DNA of 64,000 bases from a candidate division WWE3 bacterium UBA1401. Lineage in GTDB: Bacteria; Patescibacteriota; WWE3; UBA101185; UBA10185. Below, one piece after another: positions 6,951 through 63,455 of this stretch (position 1 is its first letter; every line of letters starts with the position of its first letter). The stretch is taken from positions 129,338 through 193,337 of the forward strand of contig DBQF01000003.1 in assembly GCA_002305115.1 (NCBI GenBank), in the 5' to 3' direction. The notes under the pieces were generated by a model. It ran no database searches. It was not told where the DNA came from and saw nothing but the letters and a program-made list of their open reading frames with translations. The position numbers and the translations under genes are program-made.

Positions 6951-7982
6951 TTAAAGTTCCTTTAGGGCTAAACCAACCGGAATGGAAAATAGAGGCCCGA
7001 GGTGCAGAAATTTATCTTTTTGGGACTCAAGTCTAGAAGCGATATTCAGCTGCTTCCATGGATCAGCAAGTTCAACCTCGGCATCAAGGTGGTTGACCAT
7101 GTAAATAAATAATCCTGGCATTAGGGCAGTTCCTCCAGAAACAATTACCTTATCTATCTTAACATTAGGGTTTCTGGTTGTGAAGAATATCTTGGAACGC
7201 TTAATTTCTTCAATGATATTATCAAAAACAGGTGTAAGAGCCTGGGAAACCTTACCATCAGCTTGAGTTTCATCAAGGCCATAAGTTTTCTTGTACTCTT
7301 CGGCCTGATCATAATCTAAAGACAGGCTTTGGGAAACTGCGCGAGTTAAAACGTCACCGCCAACAGATAAACTACGCGTAAGCCGGACAAACCCGTGATA
7401 AGCCACAACTAATAGAGTGTTAGCGGTATTAATGTTCACAATAATAGTAGCATTTGGGCTTTGTGGATTATCTCCAAGACTACGGCTAATAGACAGTGTC
7501 TCCGGTTCAAGAGCTCTAGGCGTTAAATGCGCCTTTTTGAGTATTTCAATATAGCGGGAAATTATGCTTTTCTTGGCAGCCACTAAAAGTACATTCATCT
7601 TTTCTTTCTCGGTAATATCAATATCCATTTTCTGAAAGGATAGGGTTACATCATCTATGGGTAGGGGAATGTACTGTTCAGCCTCAAATCTAACTGAACT
7701 CTCCAGTTCCTTGTCACTCATAACGGGAACCTTAATAGTTCTAATGAAAACCTGGTCTTCGGGTAAACTTGCTACAACATTTCTGCGATCAAACTCTTTT
7801 TCCGTAAAGAAAGTGTCTAGCGCCGAAGCATAGTCCCCAATTTCATTAGGAGCCGCAGTCTCTAAATTTATGCGGGGAATGCTATAACTGCCAACTTTGG
7901 TGAGGGTCTTATCATCTTTACCTACATCAACCTCAACTGCCCTAAAATTTGTGCTCCCTAAACTTAGTCCCACTACATTCAT
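6951..7982 (-). CDS. pilM: Type IV pilus assembly ATPase-fold protein PilM
   Basis: Actin/FtsA-like features: VGLSLGSTNFRAVEV and VIVSGGTALMPGL. Sits upstream of pilN. Confidence 0.8.
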   Translation of the reverse strand: MNVVGLSLGSTNFRAVEVDVGKDDKTLTKVGSYSIPRINLETAAPNEIGDYASALDTFFTEKEFDRRNVVASLPEDQVFIRTIKVPVMSDKELESSVRFEAEQYIPLPIDDVTLSFQKMDIDITEKEKMNVLLVAAKKSIISRYIEILKKAHLTPRALEPETLSISRSLGDNPQSPNATIIVNINTANTLLVVAYHGFVRLTRSLSVGGDVLTRAVSQSLSLDYDQAEEYKKTYGLDETQADGKVSQALTPVFDNIIEEIKRSKIFFTTRNPNVKIDKVIVSGGTALMPGLFIYMVNHLDAEVELADPWKQLNIASRLESQKDKFLHLGPLFSIPVGLALKEL

Positions 7983-8005
7983 ACTAAAATTCTACAGTTT
8001 GCCCC

Positions 8006-8821
8006 CTAATTTGCCAAGTAATTTGTTAAAGGTTCAGTTTCGGATGTTTGATAGATTAAGTAATCGAACATAGCCGGAACCGCAGACTTAGTGCGCAAGA
8101 CCTTCACTAACTTTTGTACAGTGCCCGCTTTACCATAAGATTCAAGCAATATTCCCTGAGAAGGGATAGACTGGCCGGAGGCGGGCACAACATAAGCAGT
8201 TACATCGCCATATACAGATTTAAGCCTAAGCACCCCAGGATTGCTGCGGGCAGAGATAGTAAAACAGTTGTCAAAGCCGTGGGCCGCAACTGCTTCGTCA
8301 AACCCGTTAGTAGAATACATAGACCCGGCAGAATTGTAAGCATAAGCATCAGTAGCGTAACTACCAGGCTGACCATAAATAAACAGTGCAACTATAGATG
8401 GAATATTCACAGTGTTATCCCAACAAATATATACAGGAGCACTGCCAGAATACCCAGCTAAAGAGACCTCAGACGTGGTTGCTGTAGTAAGGTCAATCGG
8501 AAAGGGCTCCGCAGAAGATCCTAAAAAAGACAACACAATATCTGTGCGAGCAGTAATACCATCATCTCCGGTAATCTCCAGTATACAAGCACTGGCACAG
8601 TTATTGTTATTGATATAACCTTCCAGAACAGAAAAATCTTCAGCCAACAACCTCTCAATACCTGCTTCAGCTATGGCAATAGCCCTACTGGCAAAATCTA
8701 CTTCTTTGGAAGTACGTAGACTTTTTATAAGGTTGGTGGAAAGACCAATACCAAGTATTAAGGAAATAGTTAATAGCACCAAAACAGCCACAGCTGCCTG
8801 GCCAAAGCTTTTTTTTGGCAT
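8006..8821 (-). CDS. PilX-N-like pilus-associated protein (paralog of 12795..13622)
   Basis: N-terminal GQAAVAVLVLL TM segment plus an AIAEAGIERLL helix, as in PilX_N domains. The C-terminus (RLKSVYGD..PSQG..SYGKAG..PAMFDYLIY) is shared with 12795..13622. Confidence 0.6.
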   Translation of the reverse strand: MPKKSFGQAAVAVLVLLTISLILGIGLSTNLIKSLRTSKEVDFASRAIAIAEAGIERLLAEDFSVLEGYINNNNCASACILEITGDDGITARTDIVLSFLGSSAEPFPIDLTTATTSEVSLAGYSGSAPVYICWDNTVNIPSIVALFIYGQPGSYATDAYAYNSAGSMYSTNGFDEAVAAHGFDNCFTISARSNPGVLRLKSVYGDVTAYVVPASGQSIPSQGILLESYGKAGTVQKLVKVLRTKSAVPAMFDYLIYQTSETEPLTNYLAN

Positions 8822-9340
8822 CTAGTAGCTACTCCTTACAACTACAGCAGAATCAATTTTCACGCTTCCAGTATAAGCCTTTCTATTAGAAGAACTTGCC
8901 TGCTCAAAAACAAGCTGGATTTTGATAACATCCACACTCCCGGTACCAATATTACTAAAGCAAGCGCCACCACCACCAAGGCACGAAATAGTAATACCAC
9001 CGACACCAGTAGTAGAGCCAGTGCTACTTAGTGGTACGGTATTGCGCCTCAAAATACCATCAGTGCCTAAGGCATAAGTAATAACATTGTTGTTAGTATC
9101 TCTAAACACAAGAGTTTTACTGCCAGCTGGCGGAAGAGGATCCACAGAAGCGGCGTTGCGGAGTTCTTTCTCCATCTTCATAAACACAAAATTTGCGGTC
9201 TGCTCAATTTGGTTAGTGATTTGGGATTTATTATAGCTACTCACCAAACTAATAATAATATCTGTAGAAATCCCTACAGTAATAATGATGAGTGCTATTA
9301 CCAGTACAAGCTCAATAAGCGTAAAACCTTTTTGGTTCAC
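8822..9340 (-). CDS. Minor pilin / pseudopilin
   Basis: MNQKG/FTLIELVLVIALII. Confidence 0.8.
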   Translation of the reverse strand: MNQKGFTLIELVLVIALIIITVGISTDIIISLVSSYNKSQITNQIEQTANFVFMKMEKELRNAASVDPLPPAGSKTLVFRDTNNNVITYALGTDGILRRNTVPLSSTGSTTGVGGITISCLGGGGACFSNIGTGSVDVIKIQLVFEQASSSNRKAYTGSVKIDSAVVVRSSY

Positions 9341-37331: not shown

Positions 37332-39839
37332 TCAAACCTCCTTATCTTTTAATTTTCTTTGCTCCTCTGCTATTGCCATACCTTTATCAAATCTTGTGTC
37401 TAACCATCTGTGAACCTTATCTTCAACATAAGTATTATCTACACCGTACTTCTGTCTACTCAACTCCAGCACCTTTTGTTTATTGGGTGTTTTGGGTACA
37501 ACACATGTTCGAGGATCCCATGGTAATAATATTCTAGCAGAAAATGGCAATGAGGTCATACCATCAATCATGAGCTTTAAGTAGATATGAAACCTCTCTA
37601 GCGAAATTATGTCTGTGTCGTCAAAAAACGGAGCAAATTCATTAGCCAAGGCCTTAGCATCCGGGGCGCCTAAGGAAAATGTGGCAATAGTGCCCACGTT
37701 ACCAAACACAGCCTTAAGGAGCTCTTCAGGAAGCTGTGCAGTGTACTGATGAGTAAGATAAAGCCCCAATTTGTATTTTCTAGACTCAGACAGAATAGTT
37801 TCAAAGCTTCCGGTGGCAAAATTCTGGAACTCATCTACATATAAATAGAAAGGGCGTCTATCTTCATATGGTATTCTTGCTCGTTGCAGTGCCATGAATT
37901 GAATTCTGGATACAAGTAGGGCGCCTAATAGATTGGCATTATCCTCCCCTACCTTACCTTTGGACAAGTTCATAAGTAGGATCTTGCCGTCATTCATAAT
38001 ATTCCATATATCAATAGTAGAATTGCGCTGGCCTAGAATATTCCTAATGGTGGTGGAAGCCAAAAATCTATTTACCTTGTTCTGAATTGGCGCGATAGCC
38101 TCGGTGACAAGCTTTTGGTTTCCTTTCATAGCCTTGTACTCAGAATCCCAAAACTTTTGTACCATAGGATCTTTTACAAAATGTAGTATATACTTTAGGT
38201 AGTTGTCATCTTCCAACAACCTTGTAATACCAAGCATAGTAGTACCTGGAACTTCAAGTAGAGTCAATAAACAGTAGTTGAGTAAATATTCTAAGCGAGG
38301 TCCCCATGAATAGTCGAAATGCTGCTTAATGGCAGAAACAAGTGCCGAAGCCATAAGGTTCTTCTGAGATAAATCTTCCATCTCCAATAAATTTAGGCCA
38401 ACAGGACGCTCTGAATCTGAAGGATCCACGATAACTACATCATCAAGACGCTCATCAGGGATATGATCAAGTACTTTATCTATGGTTTCGCCGTGCGGAT
38501 CTAATACACCTACTCCAAACCCATTTTTTATATCCTGAGTAATCATTGTTTCCAAAAGTGTTGATTTACCTGTACCAGACTTTCCTATAAGATACATGTG
38601 GCGCAGCCTGTCGTCACCGTTTTTGAGTCCAAAACGTACCTGCTTACTTCTAAAGATGGTTTCCCCCATATAAGTACAATCAGAAGTTGGAAGTGTTGGA
38701 GGTGGTTCAGACTTTTTGGAATAAAGCCAGGAAATATTAGGAGTACCCAGCTCAGACGAAGGTAAGTGGAAAACAGTAGCAAGTTCTTCTACAGTAAGAA
38801 TATGAGTACATGCCGAATCTATAAAGCGTGCCCGAAATTCTTCAAGCGCGCCTGAAGTGGCGTCAACCTCAGTAGGCCTAAAACTATTGGTATAAGAGGA
38901 ATAAAACTGATTAAATGAGGCAGTTAGGGCCCTGAAGTTACTCTGAATTCGCTCAGGGGTTTGCGCAGTAGAAAGCACACGCATCTGAACACAAAAACCC
39001 ATCTTAGATAGTTTATTTTCTATAGCAGTCACCTCAAGTTCTTGTGAGGAACTAAGTTCAACCGGCTTGGGTTTATCAACATAACCCCCTGCCGTGGCAG
39101 GTTGAGGCGGAGCAAACACAGAAGTAAGTACCTCCACAACAATTTCTTTTACTTCATTTAATATTGCCTTAATAATTTCGGAAAACTCCTGGCCGAGTTT
39201 AAAAGACTTATCATAAGAACTGCCCGTTTTAATGCTTTCTATATACGCATAACCATCAGCTTGCCAACCATCGGGCACAGGCATAGCTAAAAGTTGGAGC
39301 CATACCTGCTCACCATCAGCTAGTTCGGAAAGTGAAGATGTAATACCAGACAAGGGATCTACCTCAAAGTCCCTAAAGGATTTTATGGGGAAAAAAACTT
39401 CTTTAATGGGCACAAAAGAAACCACTTCAAATTGATTGCCCTCAGGAATGCTTTGAGTATAGTCTTCAACCAACTTCATTATTGCCCGGGGATACTGAGC
39501 ATAAATTTGGCTTTCAACAAATTTTAAGATGGCCAGAGGGGCTGCCACATAAAAACGGATACCACCATTGCCGGAAAAAGCAATTTCAAAGGAAAAGTGT
39601 TCCTGGTCATCAGAATTTTCAGTAAGCAATCCATGTAACGCAGCGAACATGCCTTCTGCAGCCAAGGCAGACTCATTGCCACTACTCTGATCTTCATTAT
39701 TACGGGGAACCTGTATTTCTAATATCTGAAAATCTTTTTCTAGACTTTCTGTGGTCTTACTCTTAGCAAGCCTGGAAATAAGTTTTACTACTGCTAGAAG
39801 TAGTAGTGCAATAATTAGAACGTAGAAAAATATAGTCAT
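37332..39839 (-). CDS. Membrane-anchored P-loop ATPase, VirD4/TraG/TraD (type IV coupling protein)-like
   Basis: N-terminal TM segment. Walker A LIGKSGTGKST, VLDPHGE, and Walker B FYLYVDEFQNF. 835 aa. Confidence 0.65.
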   Translation of the reverse strand: MTIFFYVLIIALLLLAVVKLISRLAKSKTTESLEKDFQILEIQVPRNNEDQSSGNESALAAEGMFAALHGLLTENSDDQEHFSFEIAFSGNGGIRFYVAAPLAILKFVESQIYAQYPRAIMKLVEDYTQSIPEGNQFEVVSFVPIKEVFFPIKSFRDFEVDPLSGITSSLSELADGEQVWLQLLAMPVPDGWQADGYAYIESIKTGSSYDKSFKLGQEFSEIIKAILNEVKEIVVEVLTSVFAPPQPATAGGYVDKPKPVELSSSQELEVTAIENKLSKMGFCVQMRVLSTAQTPERIQSNFRALTASFNQFYSSYTNSFRPTEVDATSGALEEFRARFIDSACTHILTVEELATVFHLPSSELGTPNISWLYSKKSEPPPTLPTSDCTYMGETIFRSKQVRFGLKNGDDRLRHMYLIGKSGTGKSTLLETMITQDIKNGFGVGVLDPHGETIDKVLDHIPDERLDDVVIVDPSDSERPVGLNLLEMEDLSQKNLMASALVSAIKQHFDYSWGPRLEYLLNYCLLTLLEVPGTTMLGITRLLEDDNYLKYILHFVKDPMVQKFWDSEYKAMKGNQKLVTEAIAPIQNKVNRFLASTTIRNILGQRNSTIDIWNIMNDGKILLMNLSKGKVGEDNANLLGALLVSRIQFMALQRARIPYEDRRPFYLYVDEFQNFATGSFETILSESRKYKLGLYLTHQYTAQLPEELLKAVFGNVGTIATFSLGAPDAKALANEFAPFFDDTDIISLERFHIYLKLMIDGMTSLPFSARILLPWDPRTCVVPKTPNKQKVLELSRQKYGVDNTYVEDKVHRWLDTRFDKGMAIAEEQRKLKDKEV

Positions 39840-39853
39840 TAAAAACCACTAAA

Positions 39854-39880
39854 ACCCCCGCCCTGATTTGGGGCGGGGGT
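39854..39880 (-). terminator. Rho-independent terminator
   Basis: ACCCCCGCCC-loop-GGGCGGGGGT stem, followed on the minus strand by TTTTAGTGGTTTTT. Lies 33 nt past the stop of 39913..40938. Confidence 0.8.
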
Positions 39881-39912
39881 TAAGAAAGGAGAGAGACAAT
39901 GTGATTATATTC

Positions 39913-40938
39913 TCACAGTTTGCCCGAAATGTCAAATCCTAAGATTAAAGTTATGTCTGCCCTATCAACCACACTCTCAAGTAGATTTAGCGCATCCTTC
40001 TTGTGAATAATATTTGTAATTCCAAAGAATCTTGCTAAATATGCAACCGTCTCGGAAGACGGGTCATCAACAACTAGCGTACTTTCATCATAAATCTCGA
40101 CAGTGTTACCTAACGCAATAGACCTGCCACCAATGTTTTCAACAACCCTGCCACCAAAAGCCGCCATTCCAGCAATATCAGTGCCGTTTAGAATAGCTAC
40201 ACTCTTTTTCTCGGCAGCAATGGCCGAATTAAAAGTCTGCTCACGCAGGAACTCATCAAAATCGCTGGCGTCATAGAATGTATACTGCTTTTTTTCTAGT
40301 TCTCTGGCCAAAGAAATAATTGTAGATAGTTCGGCAAGTGTTGTATTAGTCTTGAAAGATCCCGGCAAATTTTGTAACAAATCCAGCTGCAGAAACAGAC
40401 TGGAACTGCCATTAGCCAGCCAAGCCTCAAGCTTTTCGGCAGCAGTACCTGAAATAAGAATATATCTATCAACAGTAACACCCAGCAATTTTTGAATACT
40501 CATCTGAGCAAGCTCTGCAGAACCCTCCTCCCCCATTAAACTGCCCAATGCCCATATTTTACTGACGGATTCAACACCAAATTTACCTGGAATATCAAGC
40601 TCTAAAGTTACGGGAATTTCATGGAAAGTTATAATTTGATCCCTGATATCGATTGTCACCAGACTTACTCTATCTAGCAATACGGGATCCGCATTAATAT
40701 CAGGCAAAGACATGTATAAAAGCGTATATATCTCCCTGTCGGCAAGGTCACACGTGGCAGGAGAAAAAGCAGAAGTGTATCTTTTGGTTAAAGTACGATA
40801 ACCCAATAAGCCTATGAGAAATATAATACAAAATATAAGCGCAACAACTAAATGTAAACTTCTGGATACAGTTTTTGCACGTCTGGTGGTAACTTTAGTG
40901 CGTCTTTTTGTTGATCTGGTTCGTTTTTTGGTAGGCAT
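39913..40938 (-). CDS. LytR/CpsA/Psr (LCP)-like envelope protein with LytR_C-like C-terminus
   Basis: Basic N-terminus plus one TM segment. Central region loosely LCP-like. C-terminal VAILNGTDIAGMAAFGGRVVENIGG matches the LytR_C pattern. Confidence 0.55.
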   Translation of the reverse strand: MPTKKRTRSTKRRTKVTTRRAKTVSRSLHLVVALIFCIIFLIGLLGYRTLTKRYTSAFSPATCDLADREIYTLLYMSLPDINADPVLLDRVSLVTIDIRDQIITFHEIPVTLELDIPGKFGVESVSKIWALGSLMGEEGSAELAQMSIQKLLGVTVDRYILISGTAAEKLEAWLANGSSSLFLQLDLLQNLPGSFKTNTTLAELSTIISLARELEKKQYTFYDASDFDEFLREQTFNSAIAAEKKSVAILNGTDIAGMAAFGGRVVENIGGRSIALGNTVEIYDESTLVVDDPSSETVAYLARFFGITNIIHKKDALNLLESVVDRADITLILGFDISGKL

Positions 40939-41001: not shown

Positions 41002-41676
41002 CTACAAGCTAAACTCTTCTGGTGCAGGAACAGATAAAGTCATCTGCTTTTTAGTTTCAGGATGCGTAAACTTAATCTCTAAAGCATGCAACATCAGCCG
41101 GAAAAATCTGCCTTGCCACTTCTCCTGCAAAGTCCTAGAACCATAAACACAGTCGCCCACTACCGGAAAATTCAAGGCTGCCAAATGAACACGGATCTGA
41201 TGCGTTCTACCAGTTTTAGGGTAAGCATAAACCAAAGTAAAACTATCCTCTACAACCTTGATACGCTCCACGCGGGTTAGCGCCTCTCTGCCATTTTCTA
41301 CCACTGCAAACTTAAGCCTATTCTGAGGATTTCTGGCAATCGGAGCATTGATTTCCAGAAGTTCATCTTCCAAAACCCCATCTACCAGAGCAATATATGT
41401 TTTAGTAATCTTCCTGTTTTTAAATTGCTCCTTTAAGTACTCAAAACAGCCAAATGTCTTGGCCACAAGTAAAATTCCTGAAGTAGACTTATCTAGCCTG
41501 TGTACAATACCAGCCCTCTGATAGAATTCTGTTTCGGAGGGTTTAAGTTTAAGATAACCGTATAAAAAATCTTGCAGTGTTCCGGAAACAGCCGTTTGAG
41601 ACAAGTTTACAACAAGCCCTACCGGCTTATTTACAGCCAAAAGGCAGTCGTCTTCATAGATAATATCAGGCATCAT
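41002..41676 (-). CDS. RluA-family pseudouridine synthase
   Basis: HRLDKSTSGILLVAKT catalytic Asp motif and GRTHQIRVHL. No S4 domain. Confidence 0.88.
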   Translation of the reverse strand: MMPDIIYEDDCLLAVNKPVGLVVNLSQTAVSGTLQDFLYGYLKLKPSETEFYQRAGIVHRLDKSTSGILLVAKTFGCFEYLKEQFKNRKITKTYIALVDGVLEDELLEINAPIARNPQNRLKFAVVENGREALTRVERIKVVEDSFTLVYAYPKTGRTHQIRVHLAALNFPVVGDCVYGSRTLQEKWQGRFFRLMLHALEIKFTHPETKKQMTLSVPAPEEFSL

Positions 41677-42046
41677 TCGGAGTAAAGTACTTGGCTACAA
41701 CTGTAAGTAAGTCACCAGGTACAATATTGGATTTAAGCAGGAACTCTTTTGCACCTGCTCCAAGACATGCGTCTATAACTTTTTGATCCTCTAAGTTACT
41801 TATTATAATAATTGGCTTAGCAGCCAAACTTGGGTTTTCTTTAATTCCTGTAAGAACTTTTAGCCCGTCTAGCCGCGGAAGCATGATATCAAGCAGTAAC
41901 AAGTCCCATACGCCCTCATTAATTTTGGCAAGAGCTGTTTCACCGTCTGCTGCTTGATCAACCTGATAACCTGCGCTAGCTAGAAATTCCGCATACAAAT
42001 CCCTAATACTGGTTTCATCTTCAACCAGAAGTATGTTTTTCGACAT
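41666..42046 (-). CDS. Single-domain response regulator (CheY-like receiver)
   Basis: ORF 41666..42082; likely start MSKNILLVEDE at 42046. Contains DLLLLDIMLPRLDG and a conserved Lys region. Confidence 0.8.
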   Translation of the reverse strand: MSKNILLVEDETSIRDLYAEFLASAGYQVDQAADGETALAKINEGVWDLLLLDIMLPRLDGLKVLTGIKENPSLAAKPIIIISNLEDQKVIDACLGAGAKEFLLKSNIVPGDLLTVVAKYFTPNDA

Positions 42047-42047
42047 A

Positions 42048-42449
42048 TTATTCCTCCAAAAAAGCTTGTACTTCCGACACAATTTTATCGGATGTGATTT
42101 CAGATTTTATCAAATAACCATCAGCACCATATGAGAAGCACGTATTTATAATGTTTTCGCTACCTAAGTTAGTAAGCAAGATCACCGGTTTGCCTTCGCC
42201 AACCTTTTCTTCCTGCATCTTCTTAAGAATTTGCACACCATCTCTTCCAGGAAGCATTATGTCTAGCAATAATAAATCCCAGCTATCTTCCAAAATCAAA
42301 TCTAGTCCAGTATCACCATCCAACGCAGTCACAACTGTATAGCCGGCATCTTCCAAAACTTCTTTATATAACATTGAGATATCCGGTTCGTCCTCTACTA
42401 ACAATACTCGCTTAGTTTCGTCTTGCAATTCCACCACCTCCTTTAACAA
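42048..42449 (-). CDS. Single-domain response regulator (CheY-like receiver)
   Basis: RVLLVEDEPD, DLLLLDIMLPGRDG, GADGYLIKS. Confidence 0.8.
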   Translation of the reverse strand: MLKEVVELQDETKRVLLVEDEPDISMLYKEVLEDAGYTVVTALDGDTGLDLILEDSWDLLLLDIMLPGRDGVQILKKMQEEKVGEGKPVILLTNLGSENIINTCFSYGADGYLIKSEITSDKIVSEVQAFLEE

Positions 42450-42750
42450 TTATACGGCTTATAAGCATAAGCAACAAGCCCATAAAAATTGCAATATCCG
42501 CAACATTTATGTAGGAAACACCTGTGAAGATTGGATCAGCAACACAACTCTGCTGCAGTCGATATAGCAAGTTGTAAACTCCTCCGCCAGTAAAAACCCC
42601 TAAACCTACAATAGATAACCAACTGGAATATAAAGATCGAAAAAATACCAACAAAAAAAGTAAATAGAGTACAAAACAGAGTAAACCAAACTGCTTTACA
42701 GTTAATAGTGAATCAAGAAAGTAGGAACAATTAAGAATTGGGCCCGTCAC
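42412..42750 (-). CDS. lspA: Lipoprotein signal peptidase (SPase II)-like, short
   Basis: GGGVYNLLYRL..VADPI..INVADIAIFMG matches the LspA C-terminal GGAxGNxxDR..VVDF..FNxAD motifs. Only 112 aa. Confidence 0.6.
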   Translation of the reverse strand: MTGPILNCSYFLDSLLTVKQFGLLCFVLYLLFLLVFFRSLYSSWLSIVGLGVFTGGGVYNLLYRLQQSCVADPIFTGVSYINVADIAIFMGLLLMLISRIIVKGGGGIARRN

Positions 42751-43744
42751 TTTTACTATTACAAGAAGTACAGGTTGTGGCCTCCGGATAAATCTCTAGC
42801 CTGGCTTGTTCAATCGGCTGGCCACAAACTTCGCAGATACCGTACTTCCCAATCTTAAACCTGGCTAAGGCTTTTCTAACCTGAGTCATCGCCTTTGCCA
42901 GCGAAGATCTTTGGACAGCTTTAATCTCATGGCCGGTGTCTTCTAGCACCACTTCATCCATATCTTCAGCGTTGCCAATATCTCTACCTAGCTGCATATA
43001 TGGATCTTCCCGAATAAGCCGCTGTTGCTGTTTTCTTAATAACAAATCTTTCTGGATTAATCTCTTTCTGAATTTTTCTAGAATTTGTGCTGGTAATGTT
43101 TGTATCTTTTTCATAGAACCTCGCAGTCTAAACCCTAAATTAAGTATGCTAATTGTAAACAACGCAAGTGCAAATGGCAAATTTTTTAGGAATAGCAGGG
43201 CTAAAACGCCACCTAACAGCAGGAATGCTGAAAATGTAAGCCCCGAAAGATACTGTTTTTTTCGCAAAAAGTATAGAAAAGCGTGTACTAATAGAAAGAA
43301 CGAAAAGAGAAAGAGCAACTTGAAGTCTTTCTGCAGAGCTAATATTCCTAAACAAACAATAGAAAAACCAAAAGATAGGGCCAGTGCTGTAATATCCAAA
43401 ATGCGAAAAACAGACCAATTATGCCTTTTAGCAAAGAAAATTGTACCTGCAATAAATGGGAAAAGTAAAACCCACAGATTGAAGCCAGGAGTCCAAAAAC
43501 GAGTGACATGAAAAAAACTCCCATACCAACCATAGTGGCCACTAACAGCAAAAATAACTCTGGATAGAAGCAATGAAAAAATAGCGGAAATGAAAAACAG
43601 ATCAAACAAGTGCTCAACATCAAACCCATCTTTTCTCCCCTCTTGCCAAAATACAAATAGAGAGAAAAAAGAAGCCACCACTAAGAAGATGCCGAAAGTA
43701 TTTATCTGTAAGTTAAATAGGTGTATTACTTCAGGCAATTCCAT
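42731..43744 (-). CDS. Fusion: Lgt-like polytopic membrane domain + C-terminal DksA/TraR C4 zinc finger
   Basis: The N-terminal ~210 aa resemble prolipoprotein diacylglyceryl transferase (FFHVTRFWTPGFN.., AKRHNWSVFRILDITALALSFGF) but lack GRLGNF. The C-terminus CEVCGQPIEQARLEIYPEATTCTSC fits C-[E]-x-C-x3-I-x3-R-x4-P-x4-C-x2-C exactly. Confidence 0.65.
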   Translation of the reverse strand: MELPEVIHLFNLQINTFGIFLVVASFFSLFVFWQEGRKDGFDVEHLFDLFFISAIFSLLLSRVIFAVSGHYGWYGSFFHVTRFWTPGFNLWVLLFPFIAGTIFFAKRHNWSVFRILDITALALSFGFSIVCLGILALQKDFKLLFLFSFFLLVHAFLYFLRKKQYLSGLTFSAFLLLGGVLALLFLKNLPFALALFTISILNLGFRLRGSMKKIQTLPAQILEKFRKRLIQKDLLLRKQQQRLIREDPYMQLGRDIGNAEDMDEVVLEDTGHEIKAVQRSSLAKAMTQVRKALARFKIGKYGICEVCGQPIEQARLEIYPEATTCTSCNSKSDGPNS

Positions 43745-43746
43745 AA

Positions 43747-44301
43747 TTAGGCTTTGGAAACATACTCCCCCGTTCGGGTATCTACTCTAATTGTATCTCC
43801 AATTTTAATAAATGGCGGAACTTTTACAACCAGGCCAGTGGTCATAGTAGCATCTTTTAAAACATTAGTTACAGTATTGCCTCTAAACCCAGGCTCAGTG
43901 TACTCGACTTCAAACACCATGTTATTGGGAAGATCTACAGATACCGGGTTGCCTTCAAAATATAAAACCGACACTTCTTCTCCTTCCAATAAATACGATT
44001 GTTGTTCTTCCAGAAGATCCTCCGGTATTTGAAACTGGACATACGTCTCAGGGTCCATAAATACATAACCGGAAGCATCGTGATAGAGGTACTGGGCATT
44101 TTTTCTGTAGACATCCGCAGCCTCCACCTTGTCACCTGAAATGTAGCTCTTTTCCAAAACATGACCATCAATAAGATCCCGCACTCTAACTCGTACGTTG
44201 GCACTACCCCGTGAAGTTTTTATGTGTGAATACTTCAGAACCAGTAGCGGGCGGGCGTTTTCTTTATAGACGGCTCCTGTTTTTAAGTCTGTTGCAATCA
44301 T
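43747..44301 (-). CDS. efp: Elongation factor P
   Basis: 184 aa with three OB/KOW-like domains and C-terminal VDTRTGEYVSKA. Tip loop is IKTSRGSA (Arg at the position equivalent to E. coli Lys34). Confidence 0.93.
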   Translation of the reverse strand: MIATDLKTGAVYKENARPLLVLKYSHIKTSRGSANVRVRVRDLIDGHVLEKSYISGDKVEAADVYRKNAQYLYHDASGYVFMDPETYVQFQIPEDLLEEQQSYLLEGEEVSVLYFEGNPVSVDLPNNMVFEVEYTEPGFRGNTVTNVLKDATMTTGLVVKVPPFIKIGDTIRVDTRTGEYVSKA

Positions 44302-44572: not shown

Positions 44573-44661
44573 GCCACGGTGGCGGAACTGGTATACGCGT
44601 TGGTCTCAAAAACCAATGGAAGGCGACTTTCGTGTGGGTTCGATTCCCACCCGTGGCACCA
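44573..44661 (+). tRNA. tRNA-Leu (anticodon CAA), class II, with encoded CCA
   Basis: Manually folded. Acceptor GCCACGG/CCGTGGC, 3-bp D stem with GG in the loop, anticodon stem TTGGT/ACCAA with loop CTCAAAA, 17-nt variable arm, T arm GTGGG-TTCGATT-CCCAC, discriminator A plus CCA. Confidence 0.92.
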
Positions 44662-57481: not shown

Positions 57482-58300
57482 TTAATAGTACACAACACAA
57501 AAGTAACTCGTCGTTTCAACAGTATCATCCCCTAGCAACTCCCCTGAGTTCGTGTGATGTAAAACCTCCATAGAGGTAGCATCTACATTTTGCATGATCA
57601 TCAGTAAAGCCACAATGGCAGGTGGACTATCTGTATACTCACTATTTAGCGAGAGTATTTGAGCATAATCAAAATTGTTCATAAACTGAAGTGTTTTAGC
57701 ATCACGTTCTTTAGCTTCAGCACTAGTTAGATAATGAGAAAAATCTACAGACGCGACTACCACAGTGTCTGAAGTTACATAAGTACTGAGCTGATTAGCC
57801 AACTTTTGAATTGCCTCCCGGTGCATGTAACCACTAAGTAACACCGGAACTACCTGCACGTCTGGTAGGTAGTACCTAATAAAGGGCATCAATTCAGCCA
57901 TAGCTGGGTCTTGCACTACCACTTCTTGCGTATCTTCGGTTATGCCACCGTCTGTCAGCGACCTAACAAGTGCATAATCCGCTGCCACTGTGCCATAGGG
58001 TGTTTGCCAAGTGAGGTTACCGGTTAACATTAAGCTACCTCCTTGTTCTAAATGGTTTGGTCCAAGAATAATAAGGGTTTTCGGGCTCTGTTTAGCCAAG
58101 GTGGTAAAAAAATCCGCCAAAATAAACCGTGGTAAGGTATGATGTGGCACTATACCCCCTGCGATATGCCGAGTTTGCACTACATAACTAGAAGGTTTAG
58201 TACGACATAGAAACAATAGGCCAACAAATACACCAGCAAGTACTACTAAAGTCTTAGTGATCTTCATTACGCTTAAAGGGTAACCGTCGGTTTTTGACAT
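57482..58300 (-). CDS. MEMO1/AmmeMemoRadiSam-B-like (class III extradiol dioxygenase superfamily) protein, membrane-anchored
   Basis: GGIVPHH, IILGPNH and ASVDFSHY metal-site-like motifs, with an N-terminal TM segment. An alternative start at 58267 would reduce the overlap with the upstream gene. Confidence 0.5.
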   Translation of the reverse strand: MSKTDGYPLSVMKITKTLVVLAGVFVGLLFLCRTKPSSYVVQTRHIAGGIVPHHTLPRFILADFFTTLAKQSPKTLIILGPNHLEQGGSLMLTGNLTWQTPYGTVAADYALVRSLTDGGITEDTQEVVVQDPAMAELMPFIRYYLPDVQVVPVLLSGYMHREAIQKLANQLSTYVTSDTVVVASVDFSHYLTSAEAKERDAKTLQFMNNFDYAQILSLNSEYTDSPPAIVALLMIMQNVDATSMEVLHHTNSGELLGDDTVETTSYFCVVYY

Positions 58301-61300
58301 AGAAAATAGCCAACCATACCAAAATTCCGACTAGCACACTCGAGCCAAGTTGAGCAATACCTAGTCTGCCAGTTTGATGATACCGAGCAAACCCGGTAGG
58401 TAATTTTCCAGGAACAACAGCGGACACTTTATCGGTCTGAACGGTCTGTACAGCACTTCTACCATTTATTTCAGGCGAGTACATTAAAGAAACTGCCGCA
58501 GGGGGCACAGTGAAAGTACCTTCAGACACAACTCTAGCTTTGTAAACATAGGTTTGTTCACCCGGATCTATACGATACAGGGTAAGAATGGCGCCATTTT
58601 GAGTATACTCACGGTCATATCGGCCATAATAGGAATAGCTGGGACTAGAACGGTTGTCTACTTCGTTCAAAAAAGTTTCATTTACAGGAACTAATCCTGC
58701 GGGTAATTCATCTTCTATAACGCCATAAACTTCTGTATTAGCTAGCCCTCCAACTTTAAGCGTTACCAACACAGTATCTCCAACCCCTAGTGTATAGTGG
58801 TTTCCTTTTTCGTTAATGTACTCTCTGGTAATATACAAACCATTGGTAACCGGTTGAGCACCTCTGTCAGTACGAAAATCGGTTTGCATATAAGTTGAGT
58901 ACAATTGACCATCACCTTCTTTGGTTATAGTTAAGGAAGATCCTTCTGCCAGAATATCTGCAACAGGAACATCAACTGTAATAGGATCAGGAGAACTTGA
59001 GGTTACATTTCCTTGGGCAATATTCTTTCCATCTAGAGCCACTGAGTAAGCGTAATCAGGGGTTAGTTCATTGCCAGTCTTTGCAAATTCCACAATAGCT
59101 CGAACTACCTGAGCTGTAGCATAGCTGTTAGACCAATATCTGGCAACACGATTGCGCATTAGGTACCTTACTGCTTTTGCTGCTACTTCCCTATCCCCTT
59201 CTGCCATCAAAATAGCACGGACAGCTAAGGCAGTTGAGGCATCTTTTGACCCAAAGTTAGTTTTTGGCCCATTTTCCCAATATACTGAATCCCCCTGATC
59301 CTTGGCCATACCAATGAGCAAAGATAAACCGTTAGTAACAGAGTTATGATCACCATTCATGTAATTAGTCATTACCGCAAGTGAGAGAATATCGGGGGTT
59401 AGGCCAGCTAAATCTGGTACCGCAACAACTTTGTCCCTAGCGCCAAGTAACATTAACGCGTAGTTTTTGACAATGAGCTCTTCACGAGGAAACTCTTTAG
59501 GCTCACCTGTTGTAGCTAGATGATTTTCCAAATAGTTGCCAGCTTTCCATAGTAACTCGTCATCAACTTCAATACCTGCCTGGCGCGCCTGTAGTACATA
59601 CTCAAGTACATATGCTGTAATAAATGCATTGGAATTACCGGAGTATCCCCAGTTCCAACTACCGTTTCCACTTTGCAACGCAGTAAGCCGGGCTATACCT
59701 TTCTCGATCATGGCGTCAACATCTTTTTCGGCTAAAACTTTACTAAACAATGCGGGGTTTTGCTTTGCGATTACTGCGGGTACAAACCGGCTGGTTGTCT
59801 GTTCAATACAACCATAAGGATAGTCAATTAAGTACTCCATTGCTGAAGGAAGTGTGCCCACTAGAGTAGAAGCTAAAGACAAAGTTACGGAAGATCTAGC
59901 CTGATCACTATCTGGATGCAATTTTACTCTGTACGTCGTTGTGCCTTCGGTAAACTGGGAACTTTGCTCCTCAAAACCAAAAGGAATTACCGGCAGCGTA
60001 TGAGTTACTATATCCGCCAGGTCCTCATCTTTGCTGGAAGTAGCATCAAACGTAACTTGCGCTGCTTCATTGGCTTGCGTAGGAGTTACCTGCCACTCAA
60101 GTTGGTGAGTTTGATTAGTGCTAAGCACTAAATCCGAAATTACTTCTTGAGCAACTTCCCCGGCATCAAAAGTCAGCTTTACATCTAAAGGCTGCTCTTT
60201 AGGCGTGAAATTCTGTACTAGTGCTGTTAGTAATAAATTATCACCAACACGTAAAATGTTTGGAAGTATCGGCCTAATAATTAAGTCTTTCGTAACTACA
60301 ATAGTTTCTGTAGTTTGGCCAACTTGAGTAGAAGGCGTAACAGCTACTGCAGCTACTACCCAGGTAGTTAAATTATCGGGAAATTTAAAGCTTACCTTAG
60401 CCTTGCCGTTTTTATCCGTTTTGACCAAAGGATTCCAATAAGCTGTATCTTTAAACACAGATCTACTGCCACCTTTTTGGTTGTGTACCCACGCTCCCCC
60501 AGCAAAATAGGCATGATAATCCTCTACTGTTAAGTTGTAAACAGTAAACTTACCGCGCTGCCATTCTAGGGAAGTAATAGGAACTTGGTTGTTAGCACTA
60601 TCAACTAGTACATCACCAAGCTGGCTGGAACCGGCCGTCTGCCATTGTCCGTTAAGCCAAATAATATGGTCTGCCGTAACTTTTAAGTTGCCGTTGATAA
60701 TCAAGTATCCGGTTTCTTCTGCAGAGTGCGTAGCCGTTACTCTGGCCTTCTTTAAAGTACTGTCATGCTCGGAACGGGTTAGGACATAGTCTCCAACTTT
60801 AACTGTGTCTATAGCTCTTAATGAGCCATTTGCCATTAATACTTGAGTACCCTTAGCAAAACAACCTCCACCCCCTTCAGCAGCAGAACCAATAGATATG
60901 CCGGAGAGTGAATGGCTGCTTGTGGTGGTGTTATACCTAGATTTCCAAAATGCTTCAAAAATATCACCTAGTTTAGAATCTGAAAGTTCAAAAATAGCCT
61001 GATCTACCGCCCAAAGGGTAACGTCAGCCGCGACAGGATTACCAGCTAAATCAGTAGTTGCAATATTTATCTGCGTAGTTTCTCCGGGGCCGTAACTGGC
61101 GCTATCGGGTGTAATAGCCACCTTGATTTTCTTAGTGTCAGCACCTACGGACAAATTTAACTGCTCTGTGTCTAGAGCATAATCAGAGAAACTTGAAGCC
61201 CTTATATAAACGTTTGGTATATCTGTCGAGGTCAAAGGAAGCGAAACCGTATCACTTGCTCCAGATAGTTTAACCACCTGAAATCTTTGAACTCTGCCAC

Positions 61301-63380
61301 GCTCGAAAGTTAACAAAATGTCTCTATCAGGAATAGTAGAAAAGATATCAAGTTTGATCGTATCTGTGGGCTCATAGGTTTGCTTATCCGGAGCAAGAGT
61401 TATGTCTACAGCGGTAGTGTCAGCCGAATAGAACGGCTGATCTTTTGAGGAAACATAAGTATAAAAGGTTTTTACAATTTTATTACCCTGCTTGTCTTGT
61501 GCCTCTACAGTAATATCGTAAGAACCGGGCTGCGTAGGTGTAAAGGCTAGTGTAGTATTTCCCTGGGCATCGGTAGTTGCGGTTAACTGACTTAGTGATT
61601 CCTCTTCTCTTTTATAGGAAGAGTATTTGGCACCTTCCTTCCAATAGCTAGACCAGTAATAGCGCTTTACGCTTGCAGTAAGTGGTACATTCGCAATATT
61701 TGTATTGGCTCTATAAGGAAGTAACGTAATGGGCAGTTCAAATTTAGAGTCTACTGTACCCCTGTAATTTCCTTCTCTACGATAAATGCCAAATTCGCCC
61801 GGAAATACTAGTATGTTCTTTGAATCATATGAGCTACCGGACGAGTTAGCCGAAATGGTATAAATTTGGGGCTTACCTGGGGTTGCGCTAACCGTAGTAG
61901 GCATAGATATGGTTGCTTTTCCATACTGGTCAAGAGTGGCGGAACCCTCTGTAACACTAGTGTTGCCATACCAAAACCAGAACCTATAACTATAAGGGTT
62001 ACCAAAGCTATGCCTTTGAGCATCAGACAAGTAGGTGTAATCGTGAAAGTTAACTGCTCTAACCCTATATTCTACTAATTGATTAGCAAGAGGCTGGCCG
62101 GAAAAGTAATTGCCTGTGATAGTAAACGAACTATGATCACCGGATACCAGGTCTGTGGAAGGAACAGAAACATCTATAGTGAATTCAGGTTTACGGAAGT
62201 ATTCAACATCAAAGCTAGTGGTGTCCTCGCGCGCCCAAGGGTCATCTGAATCAGCATTAGGCATAGATACAACTAAAGTGTAATAACCAATCTTTGCTTT
62301 GTCGGAAAGCTGATAGTAGCCATCTATGGTGCCTGCAGAAGAAATAGAGTAATTTTTCTCAAAAACAGGCTTGGCATCACCATAGCGATAGCCATCGTAA
62401 ATGCTTACCGTTACTTCCCCACTGGGAATTGTGTAACGAGCATCATCATCATCTCGTAAAATGGTTTTGAAATAAACGGTATCTCCAGGCTTATACAAGG
62501 GTCTATCGGTAAAAACAAAATACTTAGTAGCAACACTCTTGCGGTTAAAGCTGGTGTAGAATCTATAAGAGCTTAAGTGTGTGAGATTTATTGGAAGTAG
62601 TGCCACGTCATCGTCACGGTATACAAGTGCAACATCGGCCTGAGCGGAAAGCCGCGCTTTAGCAATACCCTCCGAATTAAACTCAAGGGTTTCCAGAATC
62701 TTTTTGCCGTTTTCCAGGTTATATATGTGAATAGTCCCATCTGAGACACTCCTTTTAGTAGTAAAATCCTGACCCCAGAAGATAAATTTATTATCCCCTT
62801 CTTTTACAATTACCCCCGTACCCGATCTAACAATAAAAGCATGGGCAGTAGTTTCACCAACAGAAAGTTTTAAATACCAAATACCGGTGCCTTCCAAAGG
62901 AAGTGGAACGCGGTCTTCGTAAGAAGATGCTAAATTGAGGGTATGCGTAACAGTAGTAACGTGGTGCAAAGTAGTAGTATCTATAGATTTGTTTAATTGA
63001 TTCCCTGCTTCCCCATACACTAGATAATCTAGTAAAACCGTAGCTGAAGCCTCGTATATGTCAATGGTAAGCTCCCCCAATATCTTATAACCACCTATAT
63101 CTATGGCAGACTCGTCGGTAGAAGCCAGCCCTATTATGGCACCGTTACTGATTTTTGCATCTCCATAAAAATAAATCTGCGGATTTACACGTGCCCCCAT
63201 CACGTCTTGGGAAACTTCTTGAGGAGTAACAGTCTGAGGGGATGTAACTGGTGAAGGATTACGTAACTTGCCTAAATGGATACCATAACTGCCAGACAAA
63301 CCGAAAATTAAGAAAATTAGAGTCAGTTTTAATAACAAATCGGAGGTTGGCTTCTGGTTTTGAGGGATTAGAGTGTCCAT
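58254..63380 (-). CDS. Alpha-2-macroglobulin-like thioester protein (1708 aa) with an inserted Hint domain
   Basis: N-terminal TM/signal-anchor. MG-type repeats (FVFTDRPLYKPGDTVYFKTILR). Post-bait segment RSVFKDTAYWNP..FPDNLTTW. Thioester YPYGCIEQTTS (CIEQ at 59799..59810). C-terminal hydrophobic segment plus basic tail (sorting-signal-like). Confidence 0.88.
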   Translation of the reverse strand: MDTLIPQNQKPTSDLLLKLTLIFLIFGLSGSYGIHLGKLRNPSPVTSPQTVTPQEVSQDVMGARVNPQIYFYGDAKISNGAIIGLASTDESAIDIGGYKILGELTIDIYEASATVLLDYLVYGEAGNQLNKSIDTTTLHHVTTVTHTLNLASSYEDRVPLPLEGTGIWYLKLSVGETTAHAFIVRSGTGVIVKEGDNKFIFWGQDFTTKRSVSDGTIHIYNLENGKKILETLEFNSEGIAKARLSAQADVALVYRDDDVALLPINLTHLSSYRFYTSFNRKSVATKYFVFTDRPLYKPGDTVYFKTILRDDDDARYTIPSGEVTVSIYDGYRYGDAKPVFEKNYSISSAGTIDGYYQLSDKAKIGYYTLVVSMPNADSDDPWAREDTTSFDVEYFRKPEFTIDVSVPSTDLVSGDHSSFTITGNYFSGQPLANQLVEYRVRAVNFHDYTYLSDAQRHSFGNPYSYRFWFWYGNTSVTEGSATLDQYGKATISMPTTVSATPGKPQIYTISANSSGSSYDSKNILVFPGEFGIYRREGNYRGTVDSKFELPITLLPYRANTNIANVPLTASVKRYYWSSYWKEGAKYSSYKREEESLSQLTATTDAQGNTTLAFTPTQPGSYDITVEAQDKQGNKIVKTFYTYVSSKDQPFYSADTTAVDITLAPDKQTYEPTDTIKLDIFSTIPDRDILLTFERGRVQRFQVVKLSGASDTVSLPLTSTDIPNVYIRASSFSDYALDTEQLNLSVGADTKKIKVAITPDSASYGPGETTQINIATTDLAGNPVAADVTLWAVDQAIFELSDSKLGDIFEAFWKSRYNTTTSSHSLSGISIGSAAEGGGGCFAKGTQVLMANGSLRAIDTVKVGDYVLTRSEHDSTLKKARVTATHSAEETGYLIINGNLKVTADHIIWLNGQWQTAGSSQLGDVLVDSANNQVPITSLEWQRGKFTVYNLTVEDYHAYFAGGAWVHNQKGGSRSVFKDTAYWNPLVKTDKNGKAKVSFKFPDNLTTWVVAAVAVTPSTQVGQTTETIVVTKDLIIRPILPNILRVGDNLLLTALVQNFTPKEQPLDVKLTFDAGEVAQEVISDLVLSTNQTHQLEWQVTPTQANEAAQVTFDATSSKDEDLADIVTHTLPVIPFGFEEQSSQFTEGTTTYRVKLHPDSDQARSSVTLSLASTLVGTLPSAMEYLIDYPYGCIEQTTSRFVPAVIAKQNPALFSKVLAEKDVDAMIEKGIARLTALQSGNGSWNWGYSGNSNAFITAYVLEYVLQARQAGIEVDDELLWKAGNYLENHLATTGEPKEFPREELIVKNYALMLLGARDKVVAVPDLAGLTPDILSLAVMTNYMNGDHNSVTNGLSLLIGMAKDQGDSVYWENGPKTNFGSKDASTALAVRAILMAEGDREVAAKAVRYLMRNRVARYWSNSYATAQVVRAIVEFAKTGNELTPDYAYSVALDGKNIAQGNVTSSSPDPITVDVPVADILAEGSSLTITKEGDGQLYSTYMQTDFRTDRGAQPVTNGLYITREYINEKGNHYTLGVGDTVLVTLKVGGLANTEVYGVIEDELPAGLVPVNETFLNEVDNRSSPSYSYYGRYDREYTQNGAILTLYRIDPGEQTYVYKARVVSEGTFTVPPAAVSLMYSPEINGRSAVQTVQTDKVSAVVPGKLPTGFARYHQTGRLGIAQLGSSVLVGILVWLAIFYVKNRRLPFKRNEDH
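60480..60863 (-). other. Hint / bacterial intein-like (BIL) domain, 128 aa, embedded in the A2M-like ORF
   Basis: Block A CFAKGTQVLMANGSLRAIDTVKVGDYVL, block B KVTADH, blocks F/G VYNLTVEDYHAYFAGGAWVHN. The +1 residue is Gln. Gly-rich linkers on both sides. Confidence 0.85.
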
Positions 63381-63455
63381 CAGCTTTTACAAACTTTGTG
63401 AGTTTAGTATATATCTTTTAGAAGGGGGTAACAATGGATAGACTAATTATAAGAA

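Follow-up and report, generated by a model that had tools for sequence, protein, structure and literature searches.

A putative membrane-tethered DksA-family protein on a degenerate Lgt scaffold in candidate division WWE3

The 64,000-nucleotide stretch of candidate division WWE3 bacterium UBA1401 analysed here (from contig DBQF01000003.1, and called the window in the following) carries on its minus strand a gene in which a membrane domain related to Lgt, the prolipoprotein diacylglyceryl transferase, is joined to a domain of the DksA/TraR zinc-finger type. The reading frame of this fusion gene is unbroken, and its ATG start lies 2 nucleotides (nt) past the stop codon of efp, the gene for elongation factor P. 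The parts of the fusion are given below with their positions in the window, together with the residues of the encoded protein in amino acids (aa).

42731 to 43744, minus strand: the whole fusion gene, 337 aa, with an Lgt-like domain of seven transmembrane (TM) helices, a linker and a DksA-like domain
43118 to 43744, minus strand: membrane domain derived from Lgt, aa 1-209, with a beta-hairpin at the N-terminus and seven TM helices
43091 to 43117, minus strand: basic linker after TM7, aa 210-218
42851 to 43090, minus strand: DksA-type antiparallel coiled coil, aa 219-298, with helices at 219-246 and 262-298
42938 to 42973, minus strand: coiled-coil tip motif N258-AEDMDEVVLE-D269, placed by alignment with E. 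coli DksA
42752 to 42850, minus strand: C4 zinc ribbon, aa 299-331, with C304, C307, C325 and C328

The original prediction, made from the letters of the sequence, described the N-terminus as Lgt-like and the C-terminus as DksA/TraR-like, and the profile searches bear out both assignments. The Pfam profile LGT (PF01790) matches aa 4-133 over its positions 1-129 of 240 (E=4e-9, 36.6 bits, cut-off 24.9), and zf-dskA_traR (PF01258) matches aa 299-331 (E=5e-11, 42.8 bits, cut-off 24.9). The zinc finger had been placed at 42761-42835, which is exactly aa 304-328, CEVCGQPIEQARLEIYPEATTCTSC. The NCBIfam model dksA (TIGR02420) aligns with aa 223-330 over its positions 7-109 of 110, which is near its full length, and this means that the C-terminal third of the fusion is a whole DksA-like module, and more than a zinc finger. 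The fusion falls far under every cut-off of the NCBIfam Lgt equivalogs, for instance 33 as compared to 334 bits, and also under those of the DksA-type equivalogs, where the best one is the yteA family with 53 bits as compared to 134.

The AlphaFold2 (AF2) model of the fusion has a mean predicted local distance difference test score (pLDDT) of 86.3, and the linker is the only internal segment of low confidence (pLDDT <50 at 210-215). Seven TM helices are seen in the model, at aa 16-38, 43-68, 90-107, 112-138, 142-162, 169-186 and 189-209. Foldseek found E. coli Lgt (5AZB) as the best PDB match of the model, with E 1e-4 and a TM-score of 0.45 (query) or 0.53 (target), followed by DksA2 (4IJJ) and then by DksA in RNA-polymerase complexes (7KHI_M and 5VSW_M). 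The root mean square deviation to 7KHI_M was 2.7 Å over 119 columns and the target TM-score 0.69. The PDB sequence matches were likewise DksA2 (4IJJ), TraR (6N57) and DksA (1TJL). A single-sequence search with E. coli Lgt against all open reading frames (ORFs) of the window gave no match, not even to the fusion, and the relationship to Lgt is thus visible to profiles and structure only.

A hidden Markov model (HMM) of the fusion family places aa 5-120 on residues 14-132 of E. coli Lgt, corresponding to TM1-4 (E=3.7e-9, and E=6.2e-5 against 5AZB in the PDB), in agreement with the alignment that had been made by eye. A second, weak stretch of the same HMM corresponds to Lgt 208-231, where the TM6 region has no conserved R or E, and nothing in the fusion corresponds to Lgt 133-207, where the signature motif and the periplasmic head domain are located. 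In E. coli Lgt the active site opens to the periplasm, and the mutants Y26A/F/Q, H103A/N/Q/R/Y and R143A/E/K are inactive, as are mutants of G142, G145, E151, R239, E243 and R246 (PMC4728403). At the Y26 position the window protein has F, and F, L or I occur in the family; at H103, in the H103-GGL motif, it has W, and the family shows L, Y, I, F and others. The positions of R143, N146, E151, G154, R239 and E243 are either unaligned or variable, and among the Lgt residues tested D129 is the only one kept, as the invariant D117. The signature G142-RLGNFINGELW-G154, with the essential R143, G145 and E151, is absent and the region cannot be aligned; by ungapped extension the window protein reads SIVCLGILALQKDF there, in a column that is variable in the family. 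This is the same reading as the change from GRLGNF to IVCLGIL that was noticed originally, and from which a catalytically degenerate domain was proposed. The degeneracy is more thorough than that, with Y26 and H103 lost and the signature, the head domain and R239-E243 all unalignable. Since the defining catalytic features are absent, we read the membrane half as a pseudoenzyme scaffold that descends from Lgt, and the statement that it is an Lgt fails on these features.

The conservation that is left in the membrane domain is found at the cytoplasmic side. The invariant residues W33, G40, F41, D48, S111, R114, D117, S167, G168 and R206 are all situated at predicted cytoplasmic helix ends, the cytoplasmic loops are the most conserved and the periplasmic loops the least, and neither the periplasmic side nor the membrane core has a conserved polar residue. 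The mean number of lysines and arginines is 13.9 in the four predicted inside segments as compared to 4.3 in the outside segments. Lgt has a periplasmic N-terminus and seven helices, and the charge bias agrees with this topology, which implies that the DksA part is cytoplasmic. The N-terminus is accordingly predicted to be outside and the DksA part to follow in the cytoplasm after a basic linker of about 10 residues, so that both the charge distribution and the homology to Lgt put the zinc finger on the side where the original prediction needed it. The fusion is like E. coli Lgt (PF01790; 5AZB/5AZC) in its seven TM helices, its N-terminal beta-hairpin and its N-out/C-in arrangement, but its membrane domain is about 80 residues shorter, the conservation is on the cytoplasmic face, and a DksA domain is attached at the C-terminal end.

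The soluble regulators DksA, TraR and the Gre factors gain access to the active site of RNA polymerase via the secondary channel. The C-terminal part of the fusion resembles DksA, TraR and DksA2 (PF01258; 1TJL, 7KHI, 6N57, 4IJJ) in having a coiled coil and a C4 zinc ribbon, and in its acidic tip it keeps the Asp at the position of D74, although the tip motif as a whole is not an exact match. In the alignment, E260-x-x-D263-x-V265 of the window protein corresponds to D71, D74 and A76 (DxxDxA) of E. coli DksA. D263 is invariant in the family and stands 41 residues ahead of the first zinc Cys, as compared to 40 in E. coli DksA; the first tip position is E or D, and the third is V, I, L or A, with A in the family consensus. 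The zinc ligands C304, C307 and C325 are invariant, with the spacing C-x2-C-x17-C-x2-C, and as the fourth ligand, which aligns with C138 of E. coli DksA, about one third of the fused and stand-alone relatives have His or Asp. The known members of the DksA/TraR family are small and soluble, whereas this one is covalently bound to a polytopic membrane domain, and unlike DksA it is without the N-terminal globular segment. These sequence features are compatible with binding in the secondary channel. The residues of E. coli site 2 for guanosine tetraphosphate (ppGpp), which define a subfamily and not the family, are R91, K94, K98, R129 and K139, and their positions hold S/I/N, K/S/G, Q, Y and A in the fusion family. 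Because the E. coli residues are absent, the DksA half would probably act in the secondary channel without ppGpp.

A search of 5.8 billion proteins returned 65 full-length relatives of the fusion with the same layout (309-367 aa, 33-49% identity), and the linker is conserved across this family. Pfam LGT is undetected in about half of the members. When a profile of the membrane domain alone was searched against 1.84 billion cluster representatives (clusters at 50% identity), 56 matches were obtained at E<=1e-30, 201 at <=1e-10 and 1880 at <=1e-3. The fused gene is present in 28 species-representative genomes, and all of those with curated names belong to candidate division WWE3. Close pairs have a ratio of nonsynonymous to synonymous substitution rates (dN/dS) of 0.08-0.13 in the membrane domain and of 0.035-0.07 in the DksA domain; such low values mean that both halves are under purifying selection and that neither of them is decaying.

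A frameshift or an assembly error was named together with the original prediction as something that would undo it. Frame changes do occur at the junction, as seen in the WWE3 genome L032 (JACPGI01), where the fusion is split at the linker into overlapping ORFs (7872-8585 and 8500-8892), either by a frameshift error or by genuine fission. Against an artefact of sequencing, assembly or annotation that joins two separate genes stand the 65 independent homologues from several sources, the 28 fused genomes, the conserved linker, the selection on both halves and the fact that the identical protein is on record in both NCBI and Logan. The artefact is refuted by this, and its probability is negligible. 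In a neighbour-joining tree of the DksA domains a few fused forms (P0148, P0150, P0176) are placed among stand-alone ones, a hint that fusion or fission took place more than once, but the tree has no support values and we do not rely on it.

Our reading of the fusion, to which we give a probability of about 0.55, is that it is a membrane-tethered DksA-family factor of the RNA-polymerase secondary channel on a non-catalytic Lgt scaffold. The seven-helix domain, which has lost both the catalytic residues and the periplasmic head domain of Lgt, would in the same polypeptide serve as a non-catalytic membrane anchor, possibly also as a sensor of lipids or of the envelope. The linker of about 10 residues would hold a complete DksA-family module, the coiled coil with its acidic tip and the zinc ribbon, at the cytoplasmic face of the membrane. 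In the manner of DksA and TraR, the coiled coil would enter the secondary channel and bring D263 near the active site, probably without ppGpp, and the departure from known DksA proteins would be that the factor is fixed to the membrane. We infer that the fusion in this way could couple the status of the envelope or of the lipoproteins to transcription.

The fusion is part of a tightly packed gene cluster. On the minus strand of the window the order is dnaB, efp, fusion, LspA-like, receiver, receiver, rluD, LytR-like and TrwB/DUF8128 ATPase, and most of the junctions overlap or are only a few nt apart. The neighbouring features are as follows.

44573 to 44661, plus strand: tRNA-Leu (anticodon CAA), between dnaB and efp and on the strand opposite to the operon
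43747 to 44301, minus strand: elongation factor P (efp), the conserved upstream neighbour
42412 to 42750, minus strand: truncated LspA-like gene, 112 aa, GTG start, 20-nt overlap with the 3' end of the fusion
42048 to 42428, minus strand: stand-alone receiver 1, likely start at TTG 42428 behind an AGGAGG Shine-Dalgarno sequence, and not at 42449
41666 to 42046, minus strand: stand-alone receiver 2, a receiver-only ORF
41002 to 41676, minus strand: RluD-type pseudouridine synthase, the conserved downstream partner in all lineages examined

This gene order is repeated in near-complete genomes of relatives and in the 28 fused species-representative genomes, and it corresponds to a conserved cluster of the candidate phyla radiation (CPR), dnaB-efp-lgt(-like)-dksA(-like)-lspA-rluD. 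In about 50 other genomes, of Woesebacteria/Microgenomates, the DksA-like part is a separate gene (dnaB-efp-...-dksA-like-rluD, with a DksA-like protein of about 130 aa), and directly upstream of it a further gene of its own encodes a membrane protein of about 200 aa. Homology of this protein to the membrane domain of the fusion is seen with hhalign (probability 89%, E 2e-6), and it matches Pfam LGT with E 1e-11 in locus L065 and 6e-15 in L076, over the first half of the profile only. The stand-alone DksA-like proteins match the fused C-domain with E ~1e-30. From most of the split-pair loci of Woesebacteria/Microgenomates lspA is missing. Another unfused operon, at L087, has the order LGT (287 aa), zf-dskA_traR (110 aa), Peptidase_A8 (142 aa), receiver and rluD, and L090 has this order but no receiver. 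At L088 and L092 the fused forms are longer, with 355-417 aa, and L092 is without lspA. The operons of L087 (P0136) and L090 (P0147) and the Woesebacteria pair thus keep the gene order of the fusion cluster with two genes instead of one, and common to fused and unfused loci is efp ... lgt-like, dksA-like, in some of them lspA, rluD, LytR-like and TrwB-like ATPase.

The unfused Lgt proteins of the P0136 clade (P0207-P0216; L087 5001-5864) keep Y26, R239, E243 and R246 and, in about half of the members, H103 as well; they have a conserved K where Lgt has R143, and carry the distinct and conserved signature [GA]K[IV]GAFL[AS]Gx[DA]xG. Judging from the residues that are kept, Y26, R239, E243, R246 and partly H103, this clade may be an active variant. 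The membrane protein of about 200 aa in Woesebacteria is more degenerate than that. In Bacillota and Chloroflexi relatives we also observed the signature variant GRIGCFLNGCC.

The clusters form a graded series, from lgt with dksA and a full lspA, via a dead Lgt fused to DksA with a truncated LspA, to a 200-aa remnant with DksA and no LspA. That the genes are adjacent and separate in other CPR lineages implies that the fusion arose from neighbours within the conserved cluster. Furthermore, the pairing of an Lgt-type protein with a DksA-like one outlasts both Lgt catalysis and lspA, which is an argument for the two proteins acting together. The conserved block is longer than the lipoprotein genes, since the LytR-like protein and the ATPase after rluD are retained in essentially every fused locus and also at L087 and L092; in the window these two are found at 37332-40938 on the minus strand (LytR-like protein, 341 aa, and DUF8128/TrwB-type ATPase, 835 aa).

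For the short lspA overlapping the 3' end of the fusion, which was part of the original prediction, Peptidase_A8 (PF01252) gives 29.3 bits (cut-off 25), over profile positions 57-139 of 142 only. One gene caller gave only 52 aa for this ORF, and the GTG start at 42750 is supported by conservation. It is situated 4 residues before the NCSY motif that is equivalent to N52. The LspA family of the WWE3 type is mostly 104-139 aa, without TM1, which holds D21 and K25 in S. aureus, and without most of the beta-cradle, and such truncated forms are present in the window, L002, L007-L009, L011, L012, L014, L016, L019-L024 and other loci. The family keeps N106, V116-D118 and F132-N133...D136, and the position of D109 is variable. 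In 28 copies of the WWE3 type aligned with E. coli LspA, D72 (CVAD) and D85 (INVAD) are invariant; these correspond to D118 and D136, the catalytic dyad of S. aureus LspA (PMC6952399). We also considered, and rejected, the loss of a catalytic Asp from the LspA-like protein: the Asp of the 'DR' motif is conserved in LspA but non-catalytic, and the dyad (VxD, FNxAD) is intact.

Several points weigh against a tethered polymerase factor. The binding of the DksA-like domain to RNA polymerase is a step that we infer, a permanent tether requires the polymerase to reach the membrane, and in the literature we found no precedent for membrane tethering in the DksA family. The relative orientation of the two domains is uncertain in the AF2 model, with the pLDDT of the linker below 50. 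The tip departs from that of E. coli DksA in having V at the third position instead of A and E at the first instead of D, and the tip loop is longer than that of DksA, with a conserved, family-specific EDPYxQxGR loop between the coiled-coil helices. The equivalents of the ppGpp site-2 residues are unconserved in the family. Moreover, the tight linkage to lgt and lspA could be a sign of a role in the biogenesis of lipoproteins or of the envelope.

It is conceivable, although unlikely, that the DksA-like module is no transcription factor and instead binds zinc in the cytoplasm as an accessory to a membrane machinery that makes lipoproteins or the envelope, where the 7-TM domain, for example, holds substrates or lipids for the shortened LspA and the DksA-like part regulates or scaffolds. 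The fusion or the dksA-like gene lies between or beside lgt and lspA in many CPR lineages, and the linkage of dksA to lspA is old and shared with Chlamydia, where the operon nrdR-dksA-lspA has a DksA-family gene directly upstream of lspA as in the fusion cluster. In Bacillus the gene order, ylyA-lspA-rluD, has rluD after lspA as in the fusion cluster. The ylyA gene of B. subtilis adjoins ileS (PMC5282499). The DksA-family proteins of Chlamydia and Bacillus are, unlike the fusion, soluble and without an lgt partner. The overlap of the fusion stop with the LspA-like start suggests coupled translation, the conserved Asp dyad suggests that the LspA-like protein probably still cleaves something, and the Lgt-like and LspA-like proteins shrink in step, full with full, short with truncated, and the 200-aa remnant with none. 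However, Woesebacteria/Microgenomates keep the pair of membrane protein and DksA-like protein with no lspA in the cluster, and the membrane domain is conserved on its cytoplasmic face, while Lgt and LspA act on the periplasmic side. Outside the polymerase channel there is no obvious use for an acidic tip that is invariant at the D74 position, and the DksA-family proteins of known function bind RNA polymerase.

The two remaining explanations concern the membrane half and the linker. The membrane domain could still be an enzyme, either the only and divergent Lgt of the cell or a transferase that acts on a new substrate, lipid or protein, and the DksA-like domain its cytoplasmic regulator. The purifying selection on the membrane domain is strong, LspA normally needs the product of Lgt, and the P0136-type unfused CPR clade, with its kept residues and K at the R143 position, may be active. 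No second lgt was found in the window by the E. coli Lgt search of its ORFs, and no WWE3-labelled stand-alone Lgt among the 108 relatives found with a profile of stand-alone CPR Lgt-like proteins. The named ones among the 108 are from Bacillota, Chloroflexi, Abditibacterium and Clostridia, and as negative evidence this profile search is weak. In the fusion family, on the other hand, Y26, H103, G142, R143, G145, E151, R239 and E243 are replaced by variable residues or cannot be aligned, the head domain is gone, periplasmic side and membrane core are without conserved polar residues, and about half of the family escapes Pfam LGT. A lipobox pattern (G+LPP-type) was found in none of 97 window ORFs and in 2 of 654 ORFs of WWE3 loci, both weak, in a sample too small and too redundant to carry a conclusion. 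We hold an enzymatic function to be improbable. A latent factor that is sequestered at the membrane and freed by regulated intramembrane proteolysis, e.g. by the adjacent LspA-like aspartyl protease, seems very improbable. The gene for this protease, with an altered substrate-binding part, is directly downstream with overlapping frames, the linker after TM7 is flexible, and lspA-like genes follow most fused genes and are missing from most of the split-pair loci of Woesebacteria/Microgenomates. But the active site of LspA is at the outer face of the membrane and the DksA domain leaves TM7 at the inner face, the unfused L087 and L090 carry lspA and the fused L092 does not, and there is no conserved cleavage motif, which makes such a release speculation.

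A comparison for a DksA-family factor held at the membrane is the ToxR/CadC type of regulators and the membrane-bound anti-sigma factors, with a transcription domain on the cytoplasmic face of a membrane part, and this is an analogy only, with no homology. Regulators of the ToxR/CadC type hold a domain that binds the transcription machinery at the cytoplasmic face, where the membrane-spanning part could sense the envelope. In contrast to the fusion, these proteins bind DNA or sigma factors and have one TM helix, and do not use the secondary channel or a seven-helix scaffold. In the literature on DksA with Lgt, in Patescibacteria, or as membrane-anchored or membrane-bound, we found no description of this architecture or of a membrane-integrated DksA. 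The existing database labels of the family are "prolipoprotein diacylglyceryl transferase family protein", "TraR/DksA C4-type zinc finger protein" and "DnaK suppressor protein".

More tentatively, and with more doubt than belief, we suggest that this could be the first integral-membrane secondary-channel factor of the DksA family, held at the inner face by the dead Lgt domain so that the envelope state tunes transcription or polymerase is recruited to the membrane, and that the fused and split pairs make up a conserved CPR-specific regulatory module. The dead Lgt domain may still be shaped to sit among membrane lipids or lipoprotein precursors. If true, a DksA built into the membrane would be a new wiring of the envelope state to transcription, the polymerase could be regulated at the membrane, and transcription in the very small, lipid-scavenging CPR cells would be tuned directly by their envelope. 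As a pseudoenzyme, the Lgt scaffold is a clear case of strong purifying selection after the loss of the catalytic residues, always together with the same partner. The graded series of clusters bears on whether the lipid-scavenging CPR bacteria still make classical lipoproteins, and the fusion family makes the old linkage of dksA and lspA in Chlamydia and Bacillus testable.

The two receivers that were reported to follow the lspA both match Response_reg (E ~1e-23 each), and their phospho-acceptor motifs are intact as read from the sequence. The number of receivers between lspA and rluD is 0, 1 or 2 depending on the lineage (loci L006-L033, L087), and they can be seen as a variable insert. A crude regular expression found no histidine-kinase H-box in the window. 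Rfam gave one tRNA and nothing else over the whole window. In Woesebacteria/Microgenomates a conserved membrane protein of about 155-169 aa (MLETPH...HWNPHLNTE), with a weak match to Pfam YdjM (E 0.026), is encoded on the opposite strand, in the interval from efp to the Lgt-like gene, and the window lacks it. Its positions are given below.

L035, 6869 to 7333, minus strand: the membrane protein of about 155-169 aa
L037, 6892 to 7359, minus strand: the same protein
L047, 6686 to 7228, minus strand: the same protein
L084, 6750 to 7256, minus strand: the same protein
L090, 3388 to 3852: the same protein

Further away in the window, at 58257-63386 on the minus strand, there is a very large ORF of about 1710 aa.

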